DNA of 64,000 bases from Sarea resinae (GCA_026026165.1 JAPEUD010000023.1:62001-126000); one strand, 5' to 3'. Positions 10,061-55,621 are shown, counted from the stretch's first letter. The notes: generated by a model from the letters alone, not told the origin. Program-made: numbers and translations.

Positions 10061-10933
10061 TGTGAATCGAGTAGTCCAACGAAAGGATGCTGAGTGTTGT
10101 TGTGGTTGGGTCCAAGACTGAATTGATGATTACGATATTTACTTCCCCCAGTCTAAACGATTTGGTTTTCTCCAATTTACTACTGAGCTTCGAAATTTCT
10201 GAGTCCCAATGCTCTCAGCATCCTCTTCACTGCTACAATGCAATCACGATTTACAGTATACCTACCTTACACATCAAGCCTTTCAGTCTCAGTGAGAAAA
10301 TCAGTAGAAGCTGTCGCAAGTTCTTCGCTAAATTTGTTACAACGTCCATGGATCACAGCGCAAATTCTTTCTTCTGTTACGTTAGACTACAGCAAATTGG
10401 TACATTCCACATTCTGTCAAGTTCAGTTTGATTTCCTCGTTTATGAAGAAATAGAACCGAATTCAGTCTTGTATCGGGTTGCGTTGGTATGATGAATGTA
10501 TCGTGAATTATCCTACCTTATTTCCGTAGTCCATGGAGGCTAGTAAAAAATGCCCCTTCTTCCTCAGTGTTCGAGGAGGGGAGATCGAGAACGGAAGTGC
10601 TGTTCGCAAAGCTATGTATAGGGCGATGTGTAACTGAGCTTCCCTCAGATTCCTGATAATACCCTCTGAACTGGCGCAGTGAAGGATTCGTGAATCTGTG
10701 ACACACACAAGGAGAGGCTCAGGGCAAACAGACGTGAATGTCATGTTTGCACCATTTACATGGTTTGCGCCTGTTTGTATCAATCAAACGGGCCAGCTGG
10801 CTTACCCGTGACCTCTTGGCAAATCTTGGCATGACTTTTGCGACCCACCAAGCGAGCTGCTAAGCGAGCTGGGCAATCAGCATAAATACCGACCTCCCGC
10901 CCGCCTCTTCCTCTTCTTTTTTCTTTTCTCTTT

Positions 10934-11120
10934 AGCTCTCTTTGCCTTTTGGCTTAGATCAAGTGTAGTATCTGTTCTTTTCAGTTTAATCTCTGAAATG
11001 TCACTACGGTGACTTATTCGTGATTATACTTATTTTTAGACCTCGCGATGGAGTCACTGTGCTTGCGCAGCCTCCATTGCACAGTGTCACCGGTATTACA
11101 CTGCCTCCGGTTGACGCGAA
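10934..11120 (+). ncRNA. U2: U2 spliceosomal snRNA (3' end approximate)
   Basis: AGCTCTCTTTGCCTTTTGGCTTAGATCAAGTGTAGTATCTGTTCTTTTCAGTTTAATCTCTGAAA matches the conserved U2 5' domain, including the GTAGTA branch-pairing sequence; Sm site TATTTTTAG at about 11031; 3' stem-loop with TATTACACT loop. Confidence 0.96.
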
Positions 11121-11658
11121 CATACTTTTTCAACTTGCTCTTCGATATCATCGAGGACCTGAGGAAGAAGTCTTCTAGTAATTTAGTTTCATTCTAATAG
11201 AATAGACTTGTTATGATTTACTTGGTCTGTCTGTGCTCCGGTAGCTCTTTCGATAGTAGCTGGTTGTTCGCATGATTTTATCTGGATACAATAGATATGA
11301 AGCTTAGAATTTGGATTCCTTCCAATACGCAGTAGAGCTGCTAAAGATCATTTCGTACGGCAGAAATCCGGAAATCTTATCAGATCTCAGTGATTCAAGT
11401 GCAGTCCTCTGTACTTCGTAACTCGTACCACTTAGATACCGGAGGCGATAGATTAGGTCTTGACCCACGAAAGCCCTTGTCTATCCCACACCAAAAATGG
11501 GTCCTACAATGTGTATCCCGTGACCTCGATTTCCTGTCTGCCGCTCCACATCAAGTCGACGAGAGCCCTCATTACCACCGACAACAAACAGCAATTGCAA
11601 GTCTCCGCGCAGGATAATCACTTCTTTGCGCCCTCATCCTCCGACAACTCCGATCAAG

Positions 11659-22834: not shown

Positions 22835-23496
22835 TCCTTGGGTACGAGTTATCTACCTGGGACCGTCCGCAGCAGCCGCGTCAATCATTCAGGAAACTTT
22901 TTCTTCGTTGGTCTTCTACATAATGCGCATCTCCAAATCGATTTAGCCGGTATCGCGTTCGTCTTCTGCGCCTCTGCGGGAGTCAAGCAGTAGAGTAGTC
23001 GTCTTCAGTTCGGTTCTTCTACTGGGTTTTCATTGTTGGTTCCTGCCGAGCGGTTATGCTAGCCTTGGTGCTGGTTCTTTTGTTCGTGCCGATCTTGTCA
23101 TTCTCACTGGGCCGCCGTGGTCCATCTTTTGGCCAGTGTCGTTACTTCGGTCTGGCTGGGTCTAGCCATCGATTGGCTATATTAATGAATAAACATCACA
23201 TATGCCCCTCCACTATGACGAAGTAGTCGCTTTAATGTGATAGACTATTCTATTGTTCTCTGTGCGAAACACGGTTCTGAGTTCAAAGGGTGTCACCACT
23301 GACAGCTCCATCAGGTTCTTTTTACAAGTCCATGTTTGCTTAAGATTGCAAGTCAGATTACGTGAGAGTGTATGTGCATGTACAAGTACGCAAGTAGGTT
23401 GTGTGGTTGCTAATGTGAGACCAAGTCAGGTAGGTGGGTAAGGTAGGTAAGGTAGGTAAGGTAGGTATATATCCATCGTTAACATTTTTTTTCCTT

Positions 23497-23714
23497 CAAC
23501 AAGTGGGGTTGTGGCACAATCTCGGGGCGTTTGTTGGTTTACCATCAAAACTTCCTTATGGAAGTTGACGAATGTAGAGGTCCGAGAAAGAGGTCCTTCC
23601 CATGTACTTATGTGTAGAACGGGAGTTTCAGAGTTTCGTAGTCCCTCCTCCTCATGAAAACCCAACGGGGTTTTCGTAGGGTCCTCCACAAAAGAGGGGG
23701 GGCCTGAGCTTTTT
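23497..23714 (+). ncRNA. Putative RNA polymerase III-transcribed structured ncRNA, copy A (unknown family; start approximate)
   Basis: TATATAT 23466; A-box-like TGGCACAATCTCGG 23512-23525; hairpins with G-U pairs valid on + strand (AACTTCC-ttat-GGAAGTT; ATGAAAACCC-aacg-GGGTTTTCGT; GGGTCCTCC..GGGGGGCCT); CCTGAGC+T5 at 23703-23714; imperfect B box GTTCGATTTC at 23830; paralogous to the element at 31714-31910. Confidence 0.6.
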
Positions 23715-24048
23715 GCGAATCTTTTTGTTGTGCTTTTGCCGTTTGGGGAAGGAGCGCCCATCGACGACGGGTGGATACGAAAGGGTACTTGAGAGTATAA
23801 CCCACGAGGCGTGCCATGGAAGGATGCGAGTTCGATTTCTTGCTGAGGGCGACAAGGGATGTAGAGGTATTGCTTGATTATTCTTTTTTGTTGCTCATGC
23901 CATGCCATGTCATGCGCCCGCCAGAAAGATTCACTCTTCTTCCGCCTTCCAATTCTGCCACCGCCCCACCCGGAGCTGTACTAACATTCCAAAAGAGCCC
24001 GCTCTTCTCCGCTCAGCTTCTATTATACAATACCATGACACTGCTCAA

Positions 24049-29302: not shown

Positions 29303-30631
29303 ATGGTCTCCGATAGTCTCAAATCCCCAAATGCCATTCCTCCCCGCACCAGCTCTACCGGCATCACCAACGGCACCGGTTATGCCACCAAACCGGTCCT
29401 CAAGCCCGTCCCGGAAGGCGACTGGTTAGCCCAAGGCAAGGCGCTGCACACGAATGCCACCACCACGATCCCTCCTGGTCTGGAGCCGTCGAGAACGATC
29501 GGCGATGATCTAGTTCATCAGACCCGCGCGACTTGGTCGCCCGAGAAAGAGAAGGTGAGAATGCCATCTCGTAGCCTGCGCCTTGTTTCCCCTCAGACCA
29601 GTAAAGCGACTGAAGGCTGACCCAGCCATCTCGACAAAGATTCTACTCGGCCCATATGATTATATGATCGGACACCCTGGCAAGGACATTCGCGCTCAGC
29701 TCATCGCCGCCTTCAATGCCTGGTTACAAGTACCGGAGGAAAGTCTCGCCGTCATAACCAAGGTCATTGGAATGCTCCACACGGCCTCGCTCCTGTAAGC
29801 ATCGCAATGAACCCGGCTCACGACGGCACTGACAATTTCCAGCATCGACGATGTCGAGGACTCCTCCATACTCCGCCGTGGCGTGCCCGTCGCCCACAGC
29901 ATCTTTGGCACCGCCCAAACTATCAACTCTGCAAATTACGTCTACTTCTATGCCCTGCGCGAACTACAACATCTCCAGAACCCAAAAGCGGTTGACATCT
30001 ATACAGAAGAGCTCATCAACCTGCACCGCGGACAGGGCATGGATCTGTTCTGGCGAGATACCCTCACGTGTCCCTCCGAGGATGATTATCTGGAGATGGT
30101 ATCCAACAAAACGGGCGGGCTATTCAGACTCGCAATCAAGCTCATGCAGGCAGAGAGCAGCTCCGACAAGTTTGTCTCTCCTTCATTGCATTGCAGCCAT
30201 TTATGCCTTTTTCATATCGAGTGCCATACTAAAAGTACCGCAGAGACTGCGTCCCCCTCGTCAACCTGATCGGTATGATCTTCCAAATCCGTGACGACTA
30301 CCTCAACCTCAGCAGCACAACCTATACCCACAACAAAGGTCTCTGCGAAGACCTCACCGAAGGCAAATTCTCCTTTCCTATCATCCACTCCATCCGCGCC
30401 GACCCCTCCAATCTCCAACTCGTCAATATCCTGAAACAGCGCACCCAGGACGACGAGGTGAAAAAATATGCCGTCAGCTACATGGAGCGCACGGGTAGCT
30501 TTGAGTATACGCGCAAGGTGCTAAGAAGTCTGGTGGAACGCGCGAAGGAGATGGTCGAAATGGTGGATGGGGGAATGGGGGCCGGCAGGGGTGTCGGAGC
30601 GATCTTGGAGAGGATCGGATTGGGAGATTAG
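29303..30631 (+). CDS. BTS1: Geranylgeranyl diphosphate synthase (al-3/BTS1 type); exons 29303-29554, 29640-29794, 29843-30169, 30244-30631
   Basis: PGKDIR, LHTASL|LIDDVED (first Asp-rich motif), [46 protein letters not shown]. Confidence 0.95.
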
Positions 30632-31713
30632 GCAGGGAAGTGAGCCGGCACATCTGGGGTATGGCTCTGGATTTGATATGGTCGAATTTTCGCTTTACAT
30701 CTTTGAACGAGATGATATCTATTCGGATCTTCCGACTTCGCTCTCACGTCGGGTACGAAGAGCTGGATCAGGCTCTCAACATTTTGCATCTCCTACTTCT
30801 CTATTCCAACGTCTCTGGCTGCGACTTTGGCTTCGGCCTTTGCCTTGGCAATGGCCACCACATGTTCCGGGATTTGTTTCGTTTGGGCGGCATTCATGCG
30901 GTGTTTTTTTCTCATCCATCTATCCATCTTCGGATGCAGGGCTCTTTTTCCTCGATATTTGATTTCATCTCCCTTTTGCCTTACGATTTCCATAAATTTC
31001 CTTTTTCATCTCATGTCTCTCACATCCCTCATACCTACCTACCTACCTATCTATGTAGCCTACGTATCCGTTGGGCTAAAACCGGACACGATGACCTATC
31101 TATCCGCTTCCTGCCCAAAACTCTTCGCTAGCTTGATTTACTCATTCTTCGCGAATCCGAAAAACATATAGCTGTGATCCTTTGGTCTCTCTTGTGCTAC
31201 AAACATGCTGATATGCTCCCCCTCACTCCGCTGTTGCGGAAACGGGGGAAAGGACGGCCTTGGGAGTAATTTATCTGATGGAATAGATCTTCAGCGATGA
31301 GCCACCCACCTCGAGGCAGATGAGTGATAGAGAGTGACTACCTACTCTAAGAGAGGGAGAGGAAGAGGGAGATCACTCTTTGAGGTTTGCGTGCGATACC
31401 CGTGCTCGTCACAGATAGGCTCGATGTGTGCCCGGGCACTGGATGGAATGGATGGTGTTCATTCGATAAGAATATACTACACTCCACTCGCGACAGGACA
31501 CCTGGACCGTCGTAAATCAAAATCCCGAGAGAAGATAAGAGAACAGGAAGACATTCCTGACGGGGATCGAACCCGGCCGCTGATAGTTAGCGGCGCGGGA
31601 TAGACTCCGACGGCGGGCCAGATGTAAACATGCCCCTTCTGAAAGAGGCAAAACATCAACACGCGCCTCCTGCAAACAGGCGGGGACACGAACACGCACC
31701 TCCCCTCACAGGC

Positions 31714-31910
31714 AAAAAGCTCAGGACTCTCGAGGAGTCCCTACCAAAACCTCTCGGTTTTCTACAGCTCGAGGCCCGGGGTCCTCTGCTTTTTCAGCGA
31801 AGCGTGGGTTCTAAGTTTTATAGCGGCGATCATAAGGGGGAGATGTTGAATTCCCCCGAAGACTCTGAGGAGACGAATCTCCCCGAGCTACGCCACGACA
31901 CCTGCTTGCG
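31714..31910 (-). ncRNA. Putative RNA polymerase III-transcribed structured ncRNA, copy B (unknown family; a longer form may extend to about 31548)
   Basis: Minus strand: ATATAT 31939-31934; canonical A box TGGCGTAGCTCGG 31895-31883; GGGGAGA-TTCG-TCTCCTC and AAAACC-GAGA-GGTTTT tetraloop hairpins; GGGACTC..GAGTCCT; CCTGAGC+T5 at 31725-31714; perfect B box GGTTCGATCC 31573-31564. Confidence 0.68.
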
Positions 31911-32372
31911 AAAGATGTACGTCCTAACTGAACATATATGCCTACATCCACACTCACACTCGCACACACAGCAGCACTCCTGCAGCGGCTCTCACTACAC
32001 GCTGGGTACCACATCCACAGCCACTCCTACCGCACGCACGCACTCATACATTAGCATTTTCTCGTATCCCTTGACAGATTGGTAATACGTAGTCATGCAT
32101 AAAGATTTCAAAGATCGGCAACATTTTCCTCGGAGCTTGATTGTCGGTCCATGGCGGACGGATATCTTAATTTCTTTTTTTTTGTTGTACAGTAGATAGA
32201 ACACAGTTATCTTGTTCGTTGGATACTAGATACGATAGAAAAGATTTTCGTGTGTAATTTGTTTTGTGGGCGGTTGACAGAACGACGAATCGAAGCCCTT
32301 GGCACACAGCATGTCAAAGCATTTTGATCCTTGATCATCCCTCGACAATGGCAGCACGCGCAGGACCGTCAT

Positions 32373-33710
32373 TCAGACCCGTCGGTACAGATGCAGCTGG
32401 TACCGCATGTTCTCTAGCTCGATAGGATACCGCAGACCCTCAGGAAGCCTGAACCAGCGCGATTCGATCGATTCCAGCTTCTCCCATTGGCTCTGTCCCT
32501 GCGCATTCTTGCTGCTGCCCACGCTCGATGCCGACAAGAGGGTGTGATCGAGCAACCAGTGCATCGGGTACTTTTTTTCTTCCGGAGCCTGGGATGTGGA
32601 TTCTGTCGCTGCCGGCTTCTCGCGGAGACCAGTGCCAACAGCAACAGTCGAGTAGCTGCCAGGACTATCAACAACAAGGAGCAACGTGCCTGGTTCTAGC
32701 AGATACGTCAGACTGAGTAGAAGATTGGTGGTCTTGGTCATGGAGGCAGAGTACAGCTCGTTGAGCGTGTACATCAACGTGACTAGTCTGGCACCCTCGA
32801 GCAGCGACGTGAGAGTTGCTAATTCAAGGTCTAGGAGATCGTGTTGGTGGAAGCTCACGGATATTTCCTCGGGGGGAAGCAGGGGTGTGTTAGCAGCTGG
32901 CCGGGCGGAGGCAGGGGCGTATTTGCTTGGAGGTGGCGGAGTGGTGATGGTCCGATGTAGGGTTGAGAGGATATCAGTCCAATTTGCGATGTCGATGGCT
33001 TTGATATTGAGCTGAGGTGATTGCACGCTCCCAGAGCATTGGATAGCGGACGGGGTATCGCACGAAGTGGATGGGCTGGCGTCTGCGTCTGCATCCGCGT
33101 TTGCGTCCGGTTCTGTGCCTTCCGTTGCTTTCAATAATGAATGCATATGGCTCTGATAGCCTGCTAGGCCGACAATTTCGGCGCCTGCACCGCCGCCAAG
33201 GCAGACCATACCCAGTCTTTCTAAATTGGCATCTGGCGGCGATTTCGTCTCATCGTCGCATTGAGAGGGAGAAGCCAGAGATGATCGGTCAGTGAGATAC
33301 TTTCCAATGACTTCACGGAAGATGAGCGAGTAAGCCAGTGCCCTGCTAGAGCTCCACCGGATGGAATAGGCCTGTAGATAATCGTCTTTGCCAAAGGCGA
33401 GTTCGAAATCCCGGTTGTAGAGATGGCCTTTGATCTCTTGCAGCAGACCCTGCAGATTCGTTGAAAAGACAGACGGAAACGAATCCTTGAACACGTTGGC
33501 TAAAAGCTGCAGCAGCTCCAATGGCATCTGCGGGGAGCTGGAGCTTGTCACTTTCGCACTGGCATCATCATCATCATCATCATCTCGGCGTTTGGCTTTC
33601 GCTGGATGTCGGTCATCTTTCGATCCTCTGGACTTGGCCTTCGTCGGTGCTTTCGCTTTTGTATAATCTCTGACATTCTTTTCCTTCTTCGCTTTAGTAT
33701 TCGCTCCCAT
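32373..33710 (-). CDS. BMT6: 25S rRNA uridine-N3 methyltransferase, Bmt6-like (DUF3115), intronless
   Basis: IKGHLYNRDFELAFG..YLQAYSIRWSSSRALAY, CLGGGAGAEIVGLA SAM motif, DIANW, TLMYTLNELYS, LLVVDSPGSYS, YPIELENMRYQ. First ATG at 33710. Confidence 0.85.
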   Translation of the reverse strand: MGANTKAKKEKNVRDYTKAKAPTKAKSRGSKDDRHPAKAKRRDDDDDDDASAKVTSSSSPQMPLELLQLLANVFKDSFPSVFSTNLQGLLQEIKGHLYNRDFELAFGKDDYLQAYSIRWSSSRALAYSLIFREVIGKYLTDRSSLASPSQCDDETKSPPDANLERLGMVCLGGGAGAEIVGLAGYQSHMHSLLKATEGTEPDANADADADASPSTSCDTPSAIQCSGSVQSPQLNIKAIDIANWTDILSTLHRTITTPPPPSKYAPASARPAANTPLLPPEEISVSFHQHDLLDLELATLTSLLEGARLVTLMYTLNELYSASMTKTTNLLLSLTYLLEPGTLLLVVDSPGSYSTVAVGTGLREKPAATESTSQAPEEKKYPMHWLLDHTLLSASSVGSSKNAQGQSQWEKLESIESRWFRLPEGLRYPIELENMRYQLHLYRRV

Positions 33711-36103
33711 TTTGGCGTCCCGGCCGTACAAGAGATCAAGTGGAGGCTGAGGTATTCGAGTTGTCTCGAGCAGACAGTTAATTCATGGATTGATCAAATG
33801 TGAGGTGGAGGACCGCTCTAAGTAATCGTAGGGCACTAATGCTGGTAGCCGCCGGCTAAGCTGCATGAAATTGTCTGCCTTTGGGCTTGACTTGACGTGC
33901 ACAGCCAGGGCTAGTCCCGAGACCTCCACGTTTACACTAGAGTAATAGACTCATAAGCCAAATATCATCGTGTTTTCGCTTGAGAAGACATGGTGTTGAT
34001 ATCAGTTCAATCGTGCTTGGTCCTGCATCTCTGGTGGCTCGTATGCTTCCAGCAGGCTCTGTGCCGCCCAGGGCTAGGTATGGCTTCGTGCAGTTCTCGG
34101 TCTGCCGTGCCCATTTCTATTCTTCACAGATGTCACTCAAGTTTGATTACCTTCTATGGGGGGCCTTTCGGTGTCTTTGATCATTACTCCCGTACCCTAC
34201 GTACTGGATATGATTCTACCCCAGCGGGGATCCTTAAAGATTACTATAAGGTAGATTGTATGAGCAAATTGATGGAAGCAAGTCAATCTGAATATACGCT
34301 GCGCTTGTTGCTCCTTTGGATGGTTGACCCCAACGTCTTCTCTCATCCCCTTGCTTTCCATCTCCATCTTTGTCTTTTATTACAAGCCATCCACTGGCCG
34401 AATCGTGATTGTACAGACCTCACCGAAGAGGCGGATTCCTCCAACACCCTTCTGCGCTGCATCCCCATCTTGTCATCCTCGCCAGGTTCGCATCTTTTGA
34501 CAACGAACCCCTTACAGAGCGAATGATATATCTGAGGGAATGTTGTGGTCGAGTTGCTATCATGACTTTGGGGATGTTCCTGCCATCGTGGCCCTGTGAC
34601 TCGTGTCTCGTCTCTGAGGACATTATACTGGAACGCCATGAAATACGAACAAAACTCGAATACCATGTTCTGGGCCGGAAATGCTCTGCATGAAGGCTGA
34701 GCTTGGTTGCGTACGCTGTACCACGAGGCACCCGGCCGCGCACGCAGGTCAGATGGCCTCTGTGCCTCACTCATCTGTAAGTAAGATCATTTCTTCACCC
34801 TACCAGATGTCAGATCTGCGTCTTCCCAAGCAACAAGATCGACGAATGTATCCATTGCTGATGATGTTATTTCAAGTAATATTATCGTTGTAGATACCCG
34901 GGCAGGTATCTATCTACCTTGGGTCGACGTGCAAATTGCGTCATCTAGACACGAGATGTCTCCACGAATACACGATCGTCGTCGATGCATGCTTGGCTGC
35001 TTGTACAGAGTATGGATCGGATGCTCTACTCTGAGTATGAAGTATGCTCTGGACAGGCCCCGAAGTACCACCGCTTCGGGCGGCAATGTTGCCGACCCGT
35101 CCACCGGGATGTCTCCATCTCTCAATCCATCACCGATTTTGATGGTACCTGAGGTAGATATGGTCATGAGATGATGGAGGGAAAGGACTCGAACCAGCTG
35201 GGTGCTTGCTGCTCGACTGACGGGAGCCCACGTCGCAACACTCTCATCCATCTATGCCTTCCCGCTGGTGAAACCGGGTTACGGATCCGGATGTGGCTGA
35301 GTGGCATCCAACGATGCGACTAGCACCACGATGCCGATCCGAAAGTGTCATTTGTCGATTTCTTGCGAGCGGAGAGGACGTGACTGCGCCTCAACGCCAC
35401 ACCTGGCAGGAAAAGTGCGTTGCAAATAAATAGCATCCGAGTCGAGAGATACTAGGATCGCAGTGGATGGGAAGTACTCCGGAGTATGTAGTAGAGGGAA
35501 CGACCTTACGCAGTACAGCAGGTGAAAGTCGCTCGAATGTTCTTACGTCCACTTAGTAGATCATGATGGATCTTTTCTAGCGCCGCGACTACCAAGTGGT
35601 CAAGTACTCCGGAGTAGCGTCCATGTCCTTCAGGGAGGTAGGTGCAGTCCCTGAGATCTCAGGTACCTTGGACATACTTTGCTCGTAGTAGCCCTAGGAC
35701 CTCCAAAGGGCTTGCAGTTGGTGAGGATGACGTCGAAATGGGTGTACCTGAGCTACCAGCCGTGGGTGGCGGCCAAGCCTCTCTCGCTGGCCGGCTCGCT
35801 CGTTCGCTCGCTCGTTCGCTTGACTCGTTTCTGCGGTGACGTTGGGTCAAACTTGGCCGAGAGGGCGACTGAGCTTGGCTGGCTGTGCAATCAATCTTGC
35901 ACCTTAAGTACTACTGTGACGCCCGACTCCCACCCACCAACCACCCCCAATAACTACTCCACTCATCTCCAGCTCGACCGCACCCAACCTCCATCCCACA
36001 GTCATCCGACGTCGAAACATCAGCGAAAAGAAACAGTCGCTTCAAGATCAATCAATTGCAAAACCACTCAGCAACTCCTCGCTCTTCTTAACCAGCCTTC
36101 ATC

Positions 36104-37451: not shown

Positions 37452-39161
37452 ATGGCTCCCGAAGACGGTCCCCTCTCAGTCCGCACCGGACCAGGACCTC
37501 TACCATCAGAGCTCGAGCTCATCCTCCTCAACTATACCGCATCTCTCGAGGAAACCAAAGATTGCTTTTTGGGGCTGGCGAGCAAGGTCTTGGGTGGAGA
37601 AAGCATAGGCGCGGTGCCGGAACTCGGAGCATTTGATGTTTCGTTGATGGTCAAAAAGGCATTGGACAGCTGGGCTGGAGGGGAAGGAGGGGAACAAGGA
37701 GCTGTTGACTGTGGTGGGTTTCCTCCTTCATGATGGATACCGCACATATACATTCGGGCTCGTGTTCATCGTGCAGCATTGATTGACTGGTGCGCATACT
37801 CGATTGCGGCAGCAGCAGCAGCGCCGTCAATAGAAAGTCAGGTCTCGAGATACTTGAATGCGGAATATCTCCTCTACTTCCTCAACCAAGAGACGCCACT
37901 CTCCAAAAACCCTTTCCTGCTCCACTGGGTCGAGGCCGTGCTTGACTGGCGTAGAAGACATGACGAGCATGGCGGCCGTAACAGTCTCGAAACGCAATCG
38001 CCAGAAGGGTATCGGATAGAGTTCATCAAGTGTATACTCACCGAGGAAGTGGATGAGGTGAGCTATAAGTTTTCTCCTTTGCCCGACTGGCCTCGGTGCA
38101 AGGAAGAAAAGCATCTGATTTCTAGTCATTTCATCTAGTTCTCCGATCTCTGCCCCCGCGACGTAATACCACGCCTTGTCTCCCCGTCCCGTGGGCACGG
38201 GCATGAACAACCAAATATGTCTCATTTCATCACCATTCTGCAAGCAGAAGGGCTCTGGGACGGACCTTCTCTTGAGCCTGACTCACTAAATGATTTCAGC
38301 CTCGGAGACCCGTCCCCGGGTGTCGGAAAGACAAGCATGAACAAGGAGAAGGAAGAGAAAGAGCAGGGCAGGATAGCGGAAGAGATAGCAGACGCCCTCT
38401 CCCTGTACGCAGCAGGTGAAGACATCGACACATGCCACCTCCTATCCAACCTCACAAGCCTCCTCACTCCCATTTCCCCTTTCGCAACCCCAACGACATC
38501 TCTCAGCATGATTCTCCTCCCAACGCTCCAGACACACCTGCCCGACCTCCTCCAACGAGACCCGGCTTTCACAGTCTCCATCCTCAACACCCTCTTCTCC
38601 CTGAGCGACGACTCCTCCGATAAGCCCAACTCGCCCGTAGACTCACCGGCAACGGCAACGATGCTCTCCAAATCCGAGCTCATCGACCTCCTGCGCACGA
38701 CCCCGCTCCCCCTCTCCATCCCCGCCATGGACCTCCTGAACACAATCCTCAGCCAGCACCTCTCCTCGCTCGCTCCGACCCAGATCCAGACCCTGCTATC
38801 AGCATACATCCAGCGCTGTCTCCGATCACTCGAGACCGCCTCCACCTCCGCCTCCGCCCCCTCCCACCCATCATCATCATCATCACCATCAGCGTCATCG
38901 TCCCTAAACCCCTCCGCAAACCACGCCCGCAGCATCCACCACGCCAGCAACCCGCCGCCACCCGTCCCCCTCGACGCCCCAAGGACGGAAGAAGACCTCC
39001 TGCGCGCCCTGCACCTCCTGACGCTCTTCATCAGCTCCGCGATCCGCAAGTCGTTTGTGTCGTCGCCGCCCGTCGAGCTCGAGTACGAGATCCGCGAGCT
39101 GGGCGTCCGCTACTGCTGGGCTCCTTTTGTCAGGGCCTGGGCCGCTGAGATGGGCGTTTGA
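37452..39161 (+). CDS. CCR4-NOT subunit 11 (CNOT11/DUF2363)-like protein; probably 3 exons (last exon 38139-39161; first intron boundaries uncertain)
   Basis: C-terminus LPDLLQRDPAF..LPLSIPAMDLLN..AYIQRCLRSLE..RALHLLTLFISSAIRK..ELEYEIRELGVRY aligns by eye with the CNOT11 pattern LPDLVENNP..MSLHSMEVVN..YISNCISTCE..RLVRLVCVFLQSLIR..LFIEVQAFC; intron 38058-38138 keeps the frame. Confidence 0.68.
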
Positions 39162-39509: not shown

Positions 39510-39668
39510 GACGATGATTAAGATCTACAGAGAGGTAGACTACGGGCTATCTTGCGAACTTGGCGTGGCTACGATTTCATTCCACTTTCTATATAGATGG
39601 GCTCATTGCTTGATGGATTGCTTGCTCTATTGTTGGTATGACTGGCGGGGCTGCCTGGTTGGTCGGCA

Positions 39669-39698
39669 TAGGTAGGTAGGTAGGTAGGTAGGTAGGTA
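39669..39698. repeat. (TAGG)7 microsatellite; related TAGG/CCTA runs at about 15282, 23437-23467, 31033, 47990 and 54975
   Basis: Direct reading of tandem TAGG units. Confidence 0.9.
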
Positions 39699-40042
39699 AA
39701 CAGGTAGCTTCCCTACAGCGTGCGACCAATCGTAACGCGGGGAGAATGAAAACGTAAAAGAGAGCAAGGAAAAAGAAGAAGAAGGGCGCATAGAGGAGAA
39801 AAAGATAAGAGATGAGGATGAATTTGAAGATCAGAAAAGAGAGATATCTGTGTTATGTAGGACCGTTCTCTCTAACCCGGCTTGCACCTGCCCATCATCT
39901 ATCCACCAACCAGGCTGTCGGCCACAATCCCTTTGCAATTCGTAGCTACTGATGTAGTCAAATCACCCACCACCCACCCATCCATCCATCCATCCATCCA
40001 CGACCCGAAAATCTGAACATCTCCAAAACCCAGTCGCCACGT

Positions 40043-54902: not shown

Positions 54903-55621
54903 TGTTTCGATAGTTGTTTGATGAAATAAGGTGTTGTGGGGTCTCTTGCGATGAGGTGAGGATTTCAGTAGATCGGTAGGTAGGTAAGTAGGTAGGCAGG
55001 GTACAAAAGAACGGCAAGATCCTCGACTATGCAAGGCGTGAATGAAGGTGGATGTTGTTGTACGACGAGAGCCAAGAGGTCGTCGAGGGGCAATAGGGCA
55101 TCTGGGCGCAGAGCTTCGCTGGTCTGACGCCCGGCAGGTGGATCAGGTATGGATTAAGGATGCACGGTCAAAGCACGGCTCGACGGCGGGTTCTCGTGGA
55201 GATGGCGATAATAGTGTATAGACGTGAAAGGGCCTTCACGACGATGGCGGTGCGGCTCTGCTGGCTCGGCGTGGGTTGAGGCTCTCAGTTGCCACGAGGA
55301 TGACAAGAGTGACAAGAGTGACAATAGTGGGACATGATTCTTTCGGGATGCATTCACTCACGCATTGATCGGATTCACGACAAGAGGCCTTGTTCCCGTT
55401 GTATGCTGCCCGATCCAAAGAGGTTTAGTCTCGCTCGATGGGTCGAGGCAAGCTCCCCTCGTCGCTGCCCCTCGTCCTTAGTCAGCATTCGAGCTGCGCT
55501 GCGCAGTAGGCGTTGCTGAGCTGCCGTAATGAAATGCCCCGCCATCCATCCTATCAACACCAAAGAAGGGATTCACGAGCATCACGGCTCAATCAATCGT
55601 GCACCGCCAGGCCAGACAAAC

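Follow-up and report, generated by a model that had tools for sequence, protein, structure and literature searches.

We analysed a 64,000-nucleotide (nt) stretch of Sarea resinae DNA (GCA_026026165.1 JAPEUD010000023.1:62001-126000; hereafter the window), concentrating on a minus-strand locus, copy B, which an original prediction had described as a small structured RNA gene ending at a run of five Ts (T5) with a possible longer isoform beyond it. The window is eukaryotic and ascomycete, as indicated by a U2 small nuclear RNA (snRNA) identified by Rfam, by Pfam matches and by the protein clusters near a BMT6-like methyltransferase open reading frame (ORF), the nearest of which come from Ascomycota. 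Copy B lies downstream of the stop codon of this ORF, at 32373, and on the same strand; on its other side, a polyprenyl-synthetase gene on the plus strand ends near 30631. Because it has these two neighbours, copy B sits in a gap of ~1.2 kb between convergent genes. ARAGORN at default settings found no tRNA genes in the window. All the stems, tetraloops and T-runs first described for copy B are present on the minus strand where they had been placed (Table 1).

The name copy B implied a partner, and we located this copy A at ~23466-23839 on the plus strand. A covariance model built from the last 54 nt of copy B alone and run against the window picked out 23653-23716 (+) with 32.2 bits (E 4.6e-7), the runner-up scoring 10.3 bits (E 1.3); nhmmer gave a marginal match at 23644-23716 (E 0.12), and blastn found no close second copy of B in the window. 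Judged by their sequences, the two copies are strongly diverged and not close sequence copies. Nevertheless, their 3′ modules are homologous: both hairpins are kept in copy A, with 24 of 24 cells paired, and two pairs of the second hairpin are changed on both sides, although this is weak evidence since the alignment was fitted to the model and holds two sequences. The stems of the module are kept while its loops differ in size and sequence, and the same 14-mer, CCTGAGCTTTTTGC, closes both copies. Similarity between A and B stops directly after GCTTTTTGC; further downstream, the only similar parts are a short block ahead of the B box and the TTCGAT core.

Read along its length, copy A carries the same series of elements as copy B, comprising GTAGGTATATATCC, the A-box-like TGGCACAATCTCGG, a long variable middle and then GAAAACCC-loop-GGGTTTT-CGTAGGG-hairpin-CCTGAGCTTTTTGC. 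The middle parts of the two copies are unalignable. Their promoter and 5′ blocks can be aligned over their full length and lie at the distance expected from the significant 3′ match; we estimate the chance of such a 5′ match within a given 60-nt slot at ~0.002. Local alignment permitting long gaps, with the whole B unit set against all 700-nt tiles, placed copy A at the top (score 110, z ~4.6), but did not discriminate because a purine-rich tile at 38301-39000 scored 107 from scattered small matches. Likewise, RNAalifold on the two cores reported many compensated pairs, which mean little for two poorly aligned sequences. Copy A is flanked by a ubiquitin/AN1 zinc-finger gene and a PIG-F gene, both unrelated to the neighbours of copy B, so the A/B unit is not tied to the BMT6-like gene. 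(GGTA)n microsatellites occur at 23430-23466, 39664-39712 and 54960-55008, one of them adjoining the TATA element of copy A.

The two copies also share a promoter-like layout, with a TATA element, an A box, a T5 and a B-box-like TTCGA motif in the same order. The TATA element precedes the A box by 46 nt in copy A and 43 nt in copy B, and the A box precedes the B box by 317 nt and 322 nt, respectively. We scanned the window for this composite, requiring a TATA element no more than 80 nt upstream of an A box, a T5 that follows the A box by 120-260 nt and, 60-200 nt past this T5, a TTCGA B box in which up to 2 mismatches were allowed. Exactly two loci, A and B, matched; the average over 300 dinucleotide shuffles was 0.02 loci, with a single shuffle reaching 2, figures to be read in the knowledge that the pattern was designed after both loci had been seen. 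The exact B-box consensus, GGTTCGANNCC, has two matches in the window when both strands are searched, and one of them is that of copy B.

Table 1. Positions of the elements of copies A and B and of the ORFs beside copy B (window coordinates)
Feature	Position	Strand	Basis or remark
Copy B TATA-like element ATATAT within GTAGGCATATATG	31934..31939	-	sequence; GTAGGTATATATCC at the matching place in copy A
Copy B predicted RNA, ~194-195 nt	31714..31907	-	start predicted from TATA + ~30 nt; end = T5
Copy B A-box-like element TGGCGTAGCTCGG	31883..31895	-	fits the A-box consensus T-R-G-C-N-N-A-(N)n-G-G
Copy B stem GTGGCG/CGCCGC	31896-31891 with 31828-31823	-	sequence
Copy B UUCG hairpin GGAGA-UUCG-UCUCC	31882-31869	-	sequence
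Copy B stem GGGGGA/TCCCCC	31857-31852 with 31841-31836	-	sequence
Copy B possible long-range pair CGGGCC/GGCCCG across T5	31778-31773 and 31619-31614	-	sequence
Copy B 3′ module: hairpin AAAACC/GGTTTT, linker GGTAG, hairpin GGACTC/GAGTCC, then TGAGCTTTTTGC	31712..31765	-	source of covariance model
Copy B GAGA hairpin AAAACC-GAGA-GGTTTT	31761-31746	-	sequence
Copy B T5, predicted terminator of RNA polymerase III (Pol III)	31714..31718	-	can pair with A5 31794-31790 (inverted repeat)
Copy B spacer with the hairpins first described	31576..31713	-	hairpins not common to copy A, not kept in relative
Copy B hairpin CCTG-tttg-CAGG	31680-31669	-	sequence
Copy B 37-nt hairpin after T5	31657-31621	-	sequence
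Copy B T4 run between T5 and T-arm-like hairpin	31650..31653	-	sequence
Copy B 6-bp hairpin GCCGCT-aactatc-AGCGGC	31594-31576	-	sequence
Copy B T-arm-like hairpin CGGG-TTCGATC-CCCG, 7-nt loop	31575-31561	-	sequence
Copy B exact B-box consensus GGTTCGATCCC inside T-arm-like hairpin	31563..31573	-	322 nt after A box; putative extragenic TFIIIC site
Copy A TATA element TATATAT	23466..23472	+	sequence
Copy A T8 run between TATA and predicted start	23485-23492	+	sequence; no such run in copy B
Copy A predicted RNA, ~217 nt	23498..23714	+	predicted start
Copy A A-box-like element TGGCACAATCTCGG	23512..23525	+	sequence
Copy A 3′ module ending in CCTGAGCTTTTTGC	23653..23716	+	covariance model
Copy A tandem T-runs T5 23710-14, T5 23722-26, T4 23734-37	23710..23737, within 28 nt	+	sequence
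Copy A B-box-like AGTTCGATTTC, 9/11 consensus positions	23829..23839	+	317 nt after A box
BMT6-like methyltransferase ORF, neighbour of copy B	32373..33731	-	PF11312 (Methyltransf_34 / BMT6), E 3.3e-103
151-aa ORF antisense to copy B	31630..32085	+	judged spurious

Because a diverged paralogue has the structured 3′ module in common with it, we read copy B as a small structured RNA gene. With moderate confidence, we propose that copy B (31939-31563, minus strand) belongs to a set of two or more diverged paralogues that encode a structured RNA of ~195-215 nt, and that it is most likely transcribed by Pol III from a split promoter of the U6 type; we infer from the motifs which polymerase is used, where the RNA starts and ends, and that TFIIIC binds. 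This promoter would consist of a TATA element ~30 nt before the start, an A box within the first 25 nt of the RNA, the T5 and a B box ~140 nt past the terminator. TFIIIC would bind the A and B boxes across ~320 bp and help to place TFIIIB on the TATA element, and Pol III would start near 31907 and stop at the T5 (31718-31714). The resulting U-tail could pair with the upstream A-run and close a 3′ domain of ~80 nt, in which the last two hairpins would form the conserved core of the family. If Pol III starts and stops in this way and TFIIIC binds as proposed, the T-arm mimic after the T5 would therefore be a DNA element and not the 3′ end of a long isoform. Conserved ends flanking a variable middle would be in keeping with a scaffold RNA whose 3′ module binds protein.

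A further view of the locus came from a relative represented in RNA-library contigs. The only public run to share words with the stretch was a wood-decay metatranscriptome, searched as contigs, with 0.10 of the sampled words present. In it, a contig of 731 nt aligns to 31553-31905 at ~92% identity, differing by 26 substitutions and 5 gap letters, and continues for a further 377 nt unlike the window, while a 280-nt contig matches 31885-32026 at ~90% and continues for a further 139 nt unlike the window. Because the neighbouring genes are matched at 98-100%, these contigs derive from either a paralogue or a related species. Their block of similarity runs from 32026 to 31553, that is, from ~90 nt upstream of the TATA element to 10 nt past the B box. 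Contigs of 98-100% identity cover 30378-31173, 32176-32378, 32388-32538 and 35018-35168, and none of at least 95% lies over 31174-32175; such gaps are no evidence of silence, and copy A lay outside the stretch compared with contigs.

Positions are listed for 21 of the 26 substitutions, the other 5 lying no more than ~31 nt from one or other end of the alignment. By our own count, interior changes amount to 8 events in 156 nt of the core vs 16 in 130 nt of the spacer. When set against the minimum-energy fold, the 7 core substitutions fall at 4 unpaired positions, keep 1 pair and break 2; at 31728, a U-A pair of the conserved second hairpin becomes U-G. No difference is listed for the T5 at 31718-31714, and G-to-U changes at 31709 and 31707 create a new T4 three nt after it. 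Three indels between the A and B boxes (-1, -1, +3) alter their distance by a net +1. The contigs cannot show RNA ends, and the end of the 731-nt contig at 31905, adjoining the predicted start, is at most a weak hint. A scan of metagenomes with a 20-mer from the most conserved part of the core returned one locus that shares only 21 nt with the window, a chance match.

Several observations weigh against a Pol III gene at copy B. Its core folds little better than shuffled sequence (31907-31714, z -1.62, a value equalled or bettered by 14 of 200 shuffles), as does that of copy A (z -1.51), and the slightly longer piece 31925-31714 gives z -0.65. The promoter and 5′ block alone is not significant (4.9 bits, E 2.2, fifth among noise matches), the B box of copy A has 2 mismatches and such a relaxed motif would turn up in a 140-nt slot with a chance of ~0.045, and the comparison is of two sequences plus a list of differences, too few for a proper covariation test. 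T5 may also be a weak terminator in some fungi. The locus is covered only by the ~92% and ~90% contigs, while the neighbouring genes are covered by contigs of 98-100%; both of the relative's contigs run through the T5/B-box region into unlike sequence, with no discrete small RNA seen, and could be DNA carry-over or a longer transcript. Because 5 unlisted substitutions lie near the ends of the alignment, the A and B boxes of the relative cannot be called unchanged.

These contigs, which cover ~1 kb in all and pass through the T5 and beyond the B box, also speak for an independent small or long non-coding RNA (ncRNA) made by RNA polymerase II (Pol II) from the TATA element, in which case the T5 would be internal and the A- and B-box matches fortuitous or of some other role. 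A TATA element is indeed present, and one study describes orphan ncRNAs of 220-340 nt in filamentous ascomycetes (PMC2377427). However, the T-run is the precise point where the two copies cease to be similar, and the Pol III composite is found at both copies with matching spacing. The usual Sm-site consensus contains an A, which GAGCUUUUUGC is without, and the region upstream of the window's U2 gene (CATAAATA at ~10881-10888) bears no resemblance to the promoters of copies A and B. We therefore consider Pol II transcription unlikely. The U2 gene itself lies at 10932-11125 (+) and matches Rfam RF00004 with 156.6 bits.

The weak fold scores of the cores would also suit the absence of any stable RNA, with the two loci serving as DNA-level elements, either extra-TFIIIC (ETC) sites with chromatin or boundary roles or decaying copies of an old unit of Pol III or tRNA origin. 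Consistent with this, the 5′ block conserved between the copies falls on the A box, with no RNA structure in common, and the only other exact B box in the window, GGTTCGAGTCC at 35185-35195 (-), follows an A-box-like motif 204 nt upstream with no T-run of at least four between them. We judge this explanation improbable, however, since the best-conserved part of the unit is not the boxes but the two-hairpin module beside the T5, in which stems are kept and loops differ, and neutral decay would not leave such blocks. Preceding the GGTTCGAGTCC box, the A-box-like motif is TGGCGTTGAGG (35389-35399), and TATTTATTT lies ~30 nt before that (~35423-35431). Just beyond the box, at 35018-35168, there is an RNA-library contig of 100% identity; Rfam and Pfam scans around the box (34900-35600 and nearby ORFs) found nothing. 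This place may be bound by TFIIIC alone or may hold a further unusual Pol III unit.

The original prediction went further and suggested that the T5 is leaky, giving an isoform of ~360 nt that extends to a tRNA-like end. Such an end, composed of an anticodon-arm-like hairpin and a T-arm, might act as an RNase P/RNase Z-type signal comparable to that of MALAT1-mascRNA. Several features fit: both the T-arm-like hairpin, whose loop is the 7-nt TTCGATC, and the 6-bp hairpin next to it do exist in the sequence, copy B has only one T5, which the relative's contig crosses, and the block of similarity with the relative ends 10 nt past the T-arm, approximately where the acceptor strand of a tRNA would end. 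The 166 nt downstream of the T5 fold with z -2.22 (7 of 200 shuffles as good). The whole stretch of 378 nt gave z -2.85 (1 of 100 shuffles as good), against z -1.62 for the short core.

Comparison nevertheless speaks against this isoform. In copy A, the 146 nt after the T5 fold with z -0.22, 77 of 200 shuffles being as good, and the downstream stems of copy B were not found there beyond the TTCGA motif and the short block before it. In the relative, the 14 listed spacer substitutions fall at 5 unpaired positions, keep 1 pair and break 8, with none compensated; two of the breaks are in the 8-bp hairpin and one is in CCTG/CAGG, and the GGCCCG arm of the proposed long-range helix is split by a 3-nt GGG insertion. 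Moreover, most polymerases reading through the T5 would be stopped by the T4 at 31653-31650 before they reached the T-arm, and termination looks reinforced in copy A, where three T-runs (T5, T5 and T4) follow in tandem straight after the RNA. No cloverleaf with acceptor stem, D arm, anticodon arm and T arm was found by ARAGORN at default settings or by the Rfam tRNA model with E up to 10, and copy B has no more of a tRNA than the T-arm-like hairpin and one hairpin beside it. Very lax ARAGORN settings returned mutually inconsistent junk-level calls, one of which, with a 61-nt intron, ends at 31553.

MALAT1-mascRNA has a tRNA-like 3′ processing module and thus resembles copy B in having a T-arm-like hairpin downstream of a structured RNA, but here there is no cloverleaf, the T5 and T4 intervene and the stems are not conserved. 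On the evidence available, nothing downstream of the T5 is conserved apart from the B box, an outcome that the original prediction had itself named as counting against it, and we regard the long isoform as highly unlikely: the original prediction is thus supported for a small structured RNA gene ending at the T5 with a B box downstream, and unsupported for a long isoform with a T-arm end.

That the stretch is simply the 3′ untranslated region (UTR) of the BMT6-like gene, or codes for the 151-aa protein, is extremely unlikely: although it lies downstream on the same strand and the antisense frame is open, copy B is in the intergenic gap, the unit recurs at 23.5 kb beside unrelated genes and the ORF is without homologues, while the contig that matches the 3′ end of the BMT6-like gene at 99% extends no further than 32176, leaving 237 nt to the TATA element (a weak hint). 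The lack of recognisable homology noted at the outset for this ORF was borne out, with no Pfam match, no word-indexed protein match and one weak match (E 6e-4) among 1.84 billion representatives, and the relative carries single-base indels inside it at 31682 and 31853. Copy A has an antisense open frame of 160 aa (23426-23908, minus strand); because its translation is unrelated to that of the 151-aa ORF (BLASTP E 3.4), both frames look accidental. On the far side of the gap, the conserved part of the polyprenyl-synthetase gene, at 30000-30460 (+), is matched by many wood-decay RNA contigs of 82-90% identity from other organisms, and some of their joints, such as 30160-30257 and 30378-30457, may mark introns.

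Returning to the proposed Pol III gene, we could not place its RNA in a known class. At gathering scores, Rfam 15 gave only U2 (10932-11125) in the whole window, and lax scans of both copies with E up to 10 gave only chance-level matches to unrelated families; U6, U4, U3, 7SL, RNase P/MRP, tRNA and the rest of Rfam 15 thus had no covariance-model match to A or B. By eye, none of U4, U4atac, U3, 7SL, RNase P/MRP, C/D and H/ACA small nucleolar RNAs, 7SK or Y RNA fits. A tRNA-derived short interspersed element (SINE) was rejected because the boxes are 317-322 nt apart and not tens of nt, and because the window holds only two strongly diverged copies, no systematic search for target-site duplications having been made. 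Searched for literally in the text of papers, four motifs of the 3′ module turned up nothing but unrelated primers.

Taken more broadly, and more tentatively than for copy B itself, the two genes may represent a new Pol III family of filamentous ascomycetes, with an RNA of ~200 nt and at least two diverged genes, here 8 kb apart. Each would have a U6-style promoter with a TFIIIC site ~140 nt past the terminator and ~320 bp, or about two nucleosomes, from the A box; the SNR6 design would then be reusable and not peculiar to U6, and the two-hairpin, U-tailed 3′ module may be a protein platform. If true, a new small RNA family would join the short list of fungal Pol III products, and the post-terminator extragenic B box, a textbook oddity of yeast U6, would be in use by another gene family in another branch of ascomycetes. 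This would also provide a second natural system in which to study TFIIIC spanning A and B boxes that lie far apart on chromatin, and guide RNAs could be expressed in filamentous fungi from new Pol III promoters. Those annotating genomes should bear in mind that what resembles a T-arm after a T-run may belong to a promoter and does not necessarily form part of an RNA.

Three known systems invite comparison with these genes. As described in the report on Afu-182, Afu-202 and Afu-309 of Aspergillus fumigatus, those RNAs are likewise intergenic, structured, conserved among close relatives and unclassed (PMC2377427), a likeness of descriptions only. The same holds for the Pol III precursors of microRNA-like RNAs (milRNAs) in Neurospora crassa, which are intergenic, have a T-run right after the product and carry TATA-like elements (PMC3547838); in that study milR-4 is linked to tRNA and RNase Z. 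In contrast to those precursors, our loci have no long Dicer-type hairpin, and the tRNA-like piece lies past the terminator and is not a full tRNA.

The closest parallel is yeast U6. At 112 nt, yeast U6 is shorter than the RNA predicted here (~195-215 nt), which is not U6 by Rfam and whose host is apparently a filamentous-type ascomycete and not a budding yeast. Word searches of open-access text, which give no proof of absence, found no fungal Pol III gene with a downstream B box other than its gene, SNR6. SNR6 is described as having a TATA element upstream and an extragenic box B past the terminator, 202 bp from box A; on chromatin, TFIIIC must bind both boxes, and between the TATA element and the start there is a T7 run (PMC9136082). 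Copies A and B resemble that description in several ways: a TATA element lies upstream, at approximately -30 if the start is as predicted, the A box falls inside the predicted RNA, the T-run that would end this RNA is followed by an extragenic B box, and the T8 run of copy A is placed like the T7 element. They differ from it in the distance between the boxes, 317-322 bp vs 202 bp (PMC9136082), and the promoter here is a prediction from sequence.

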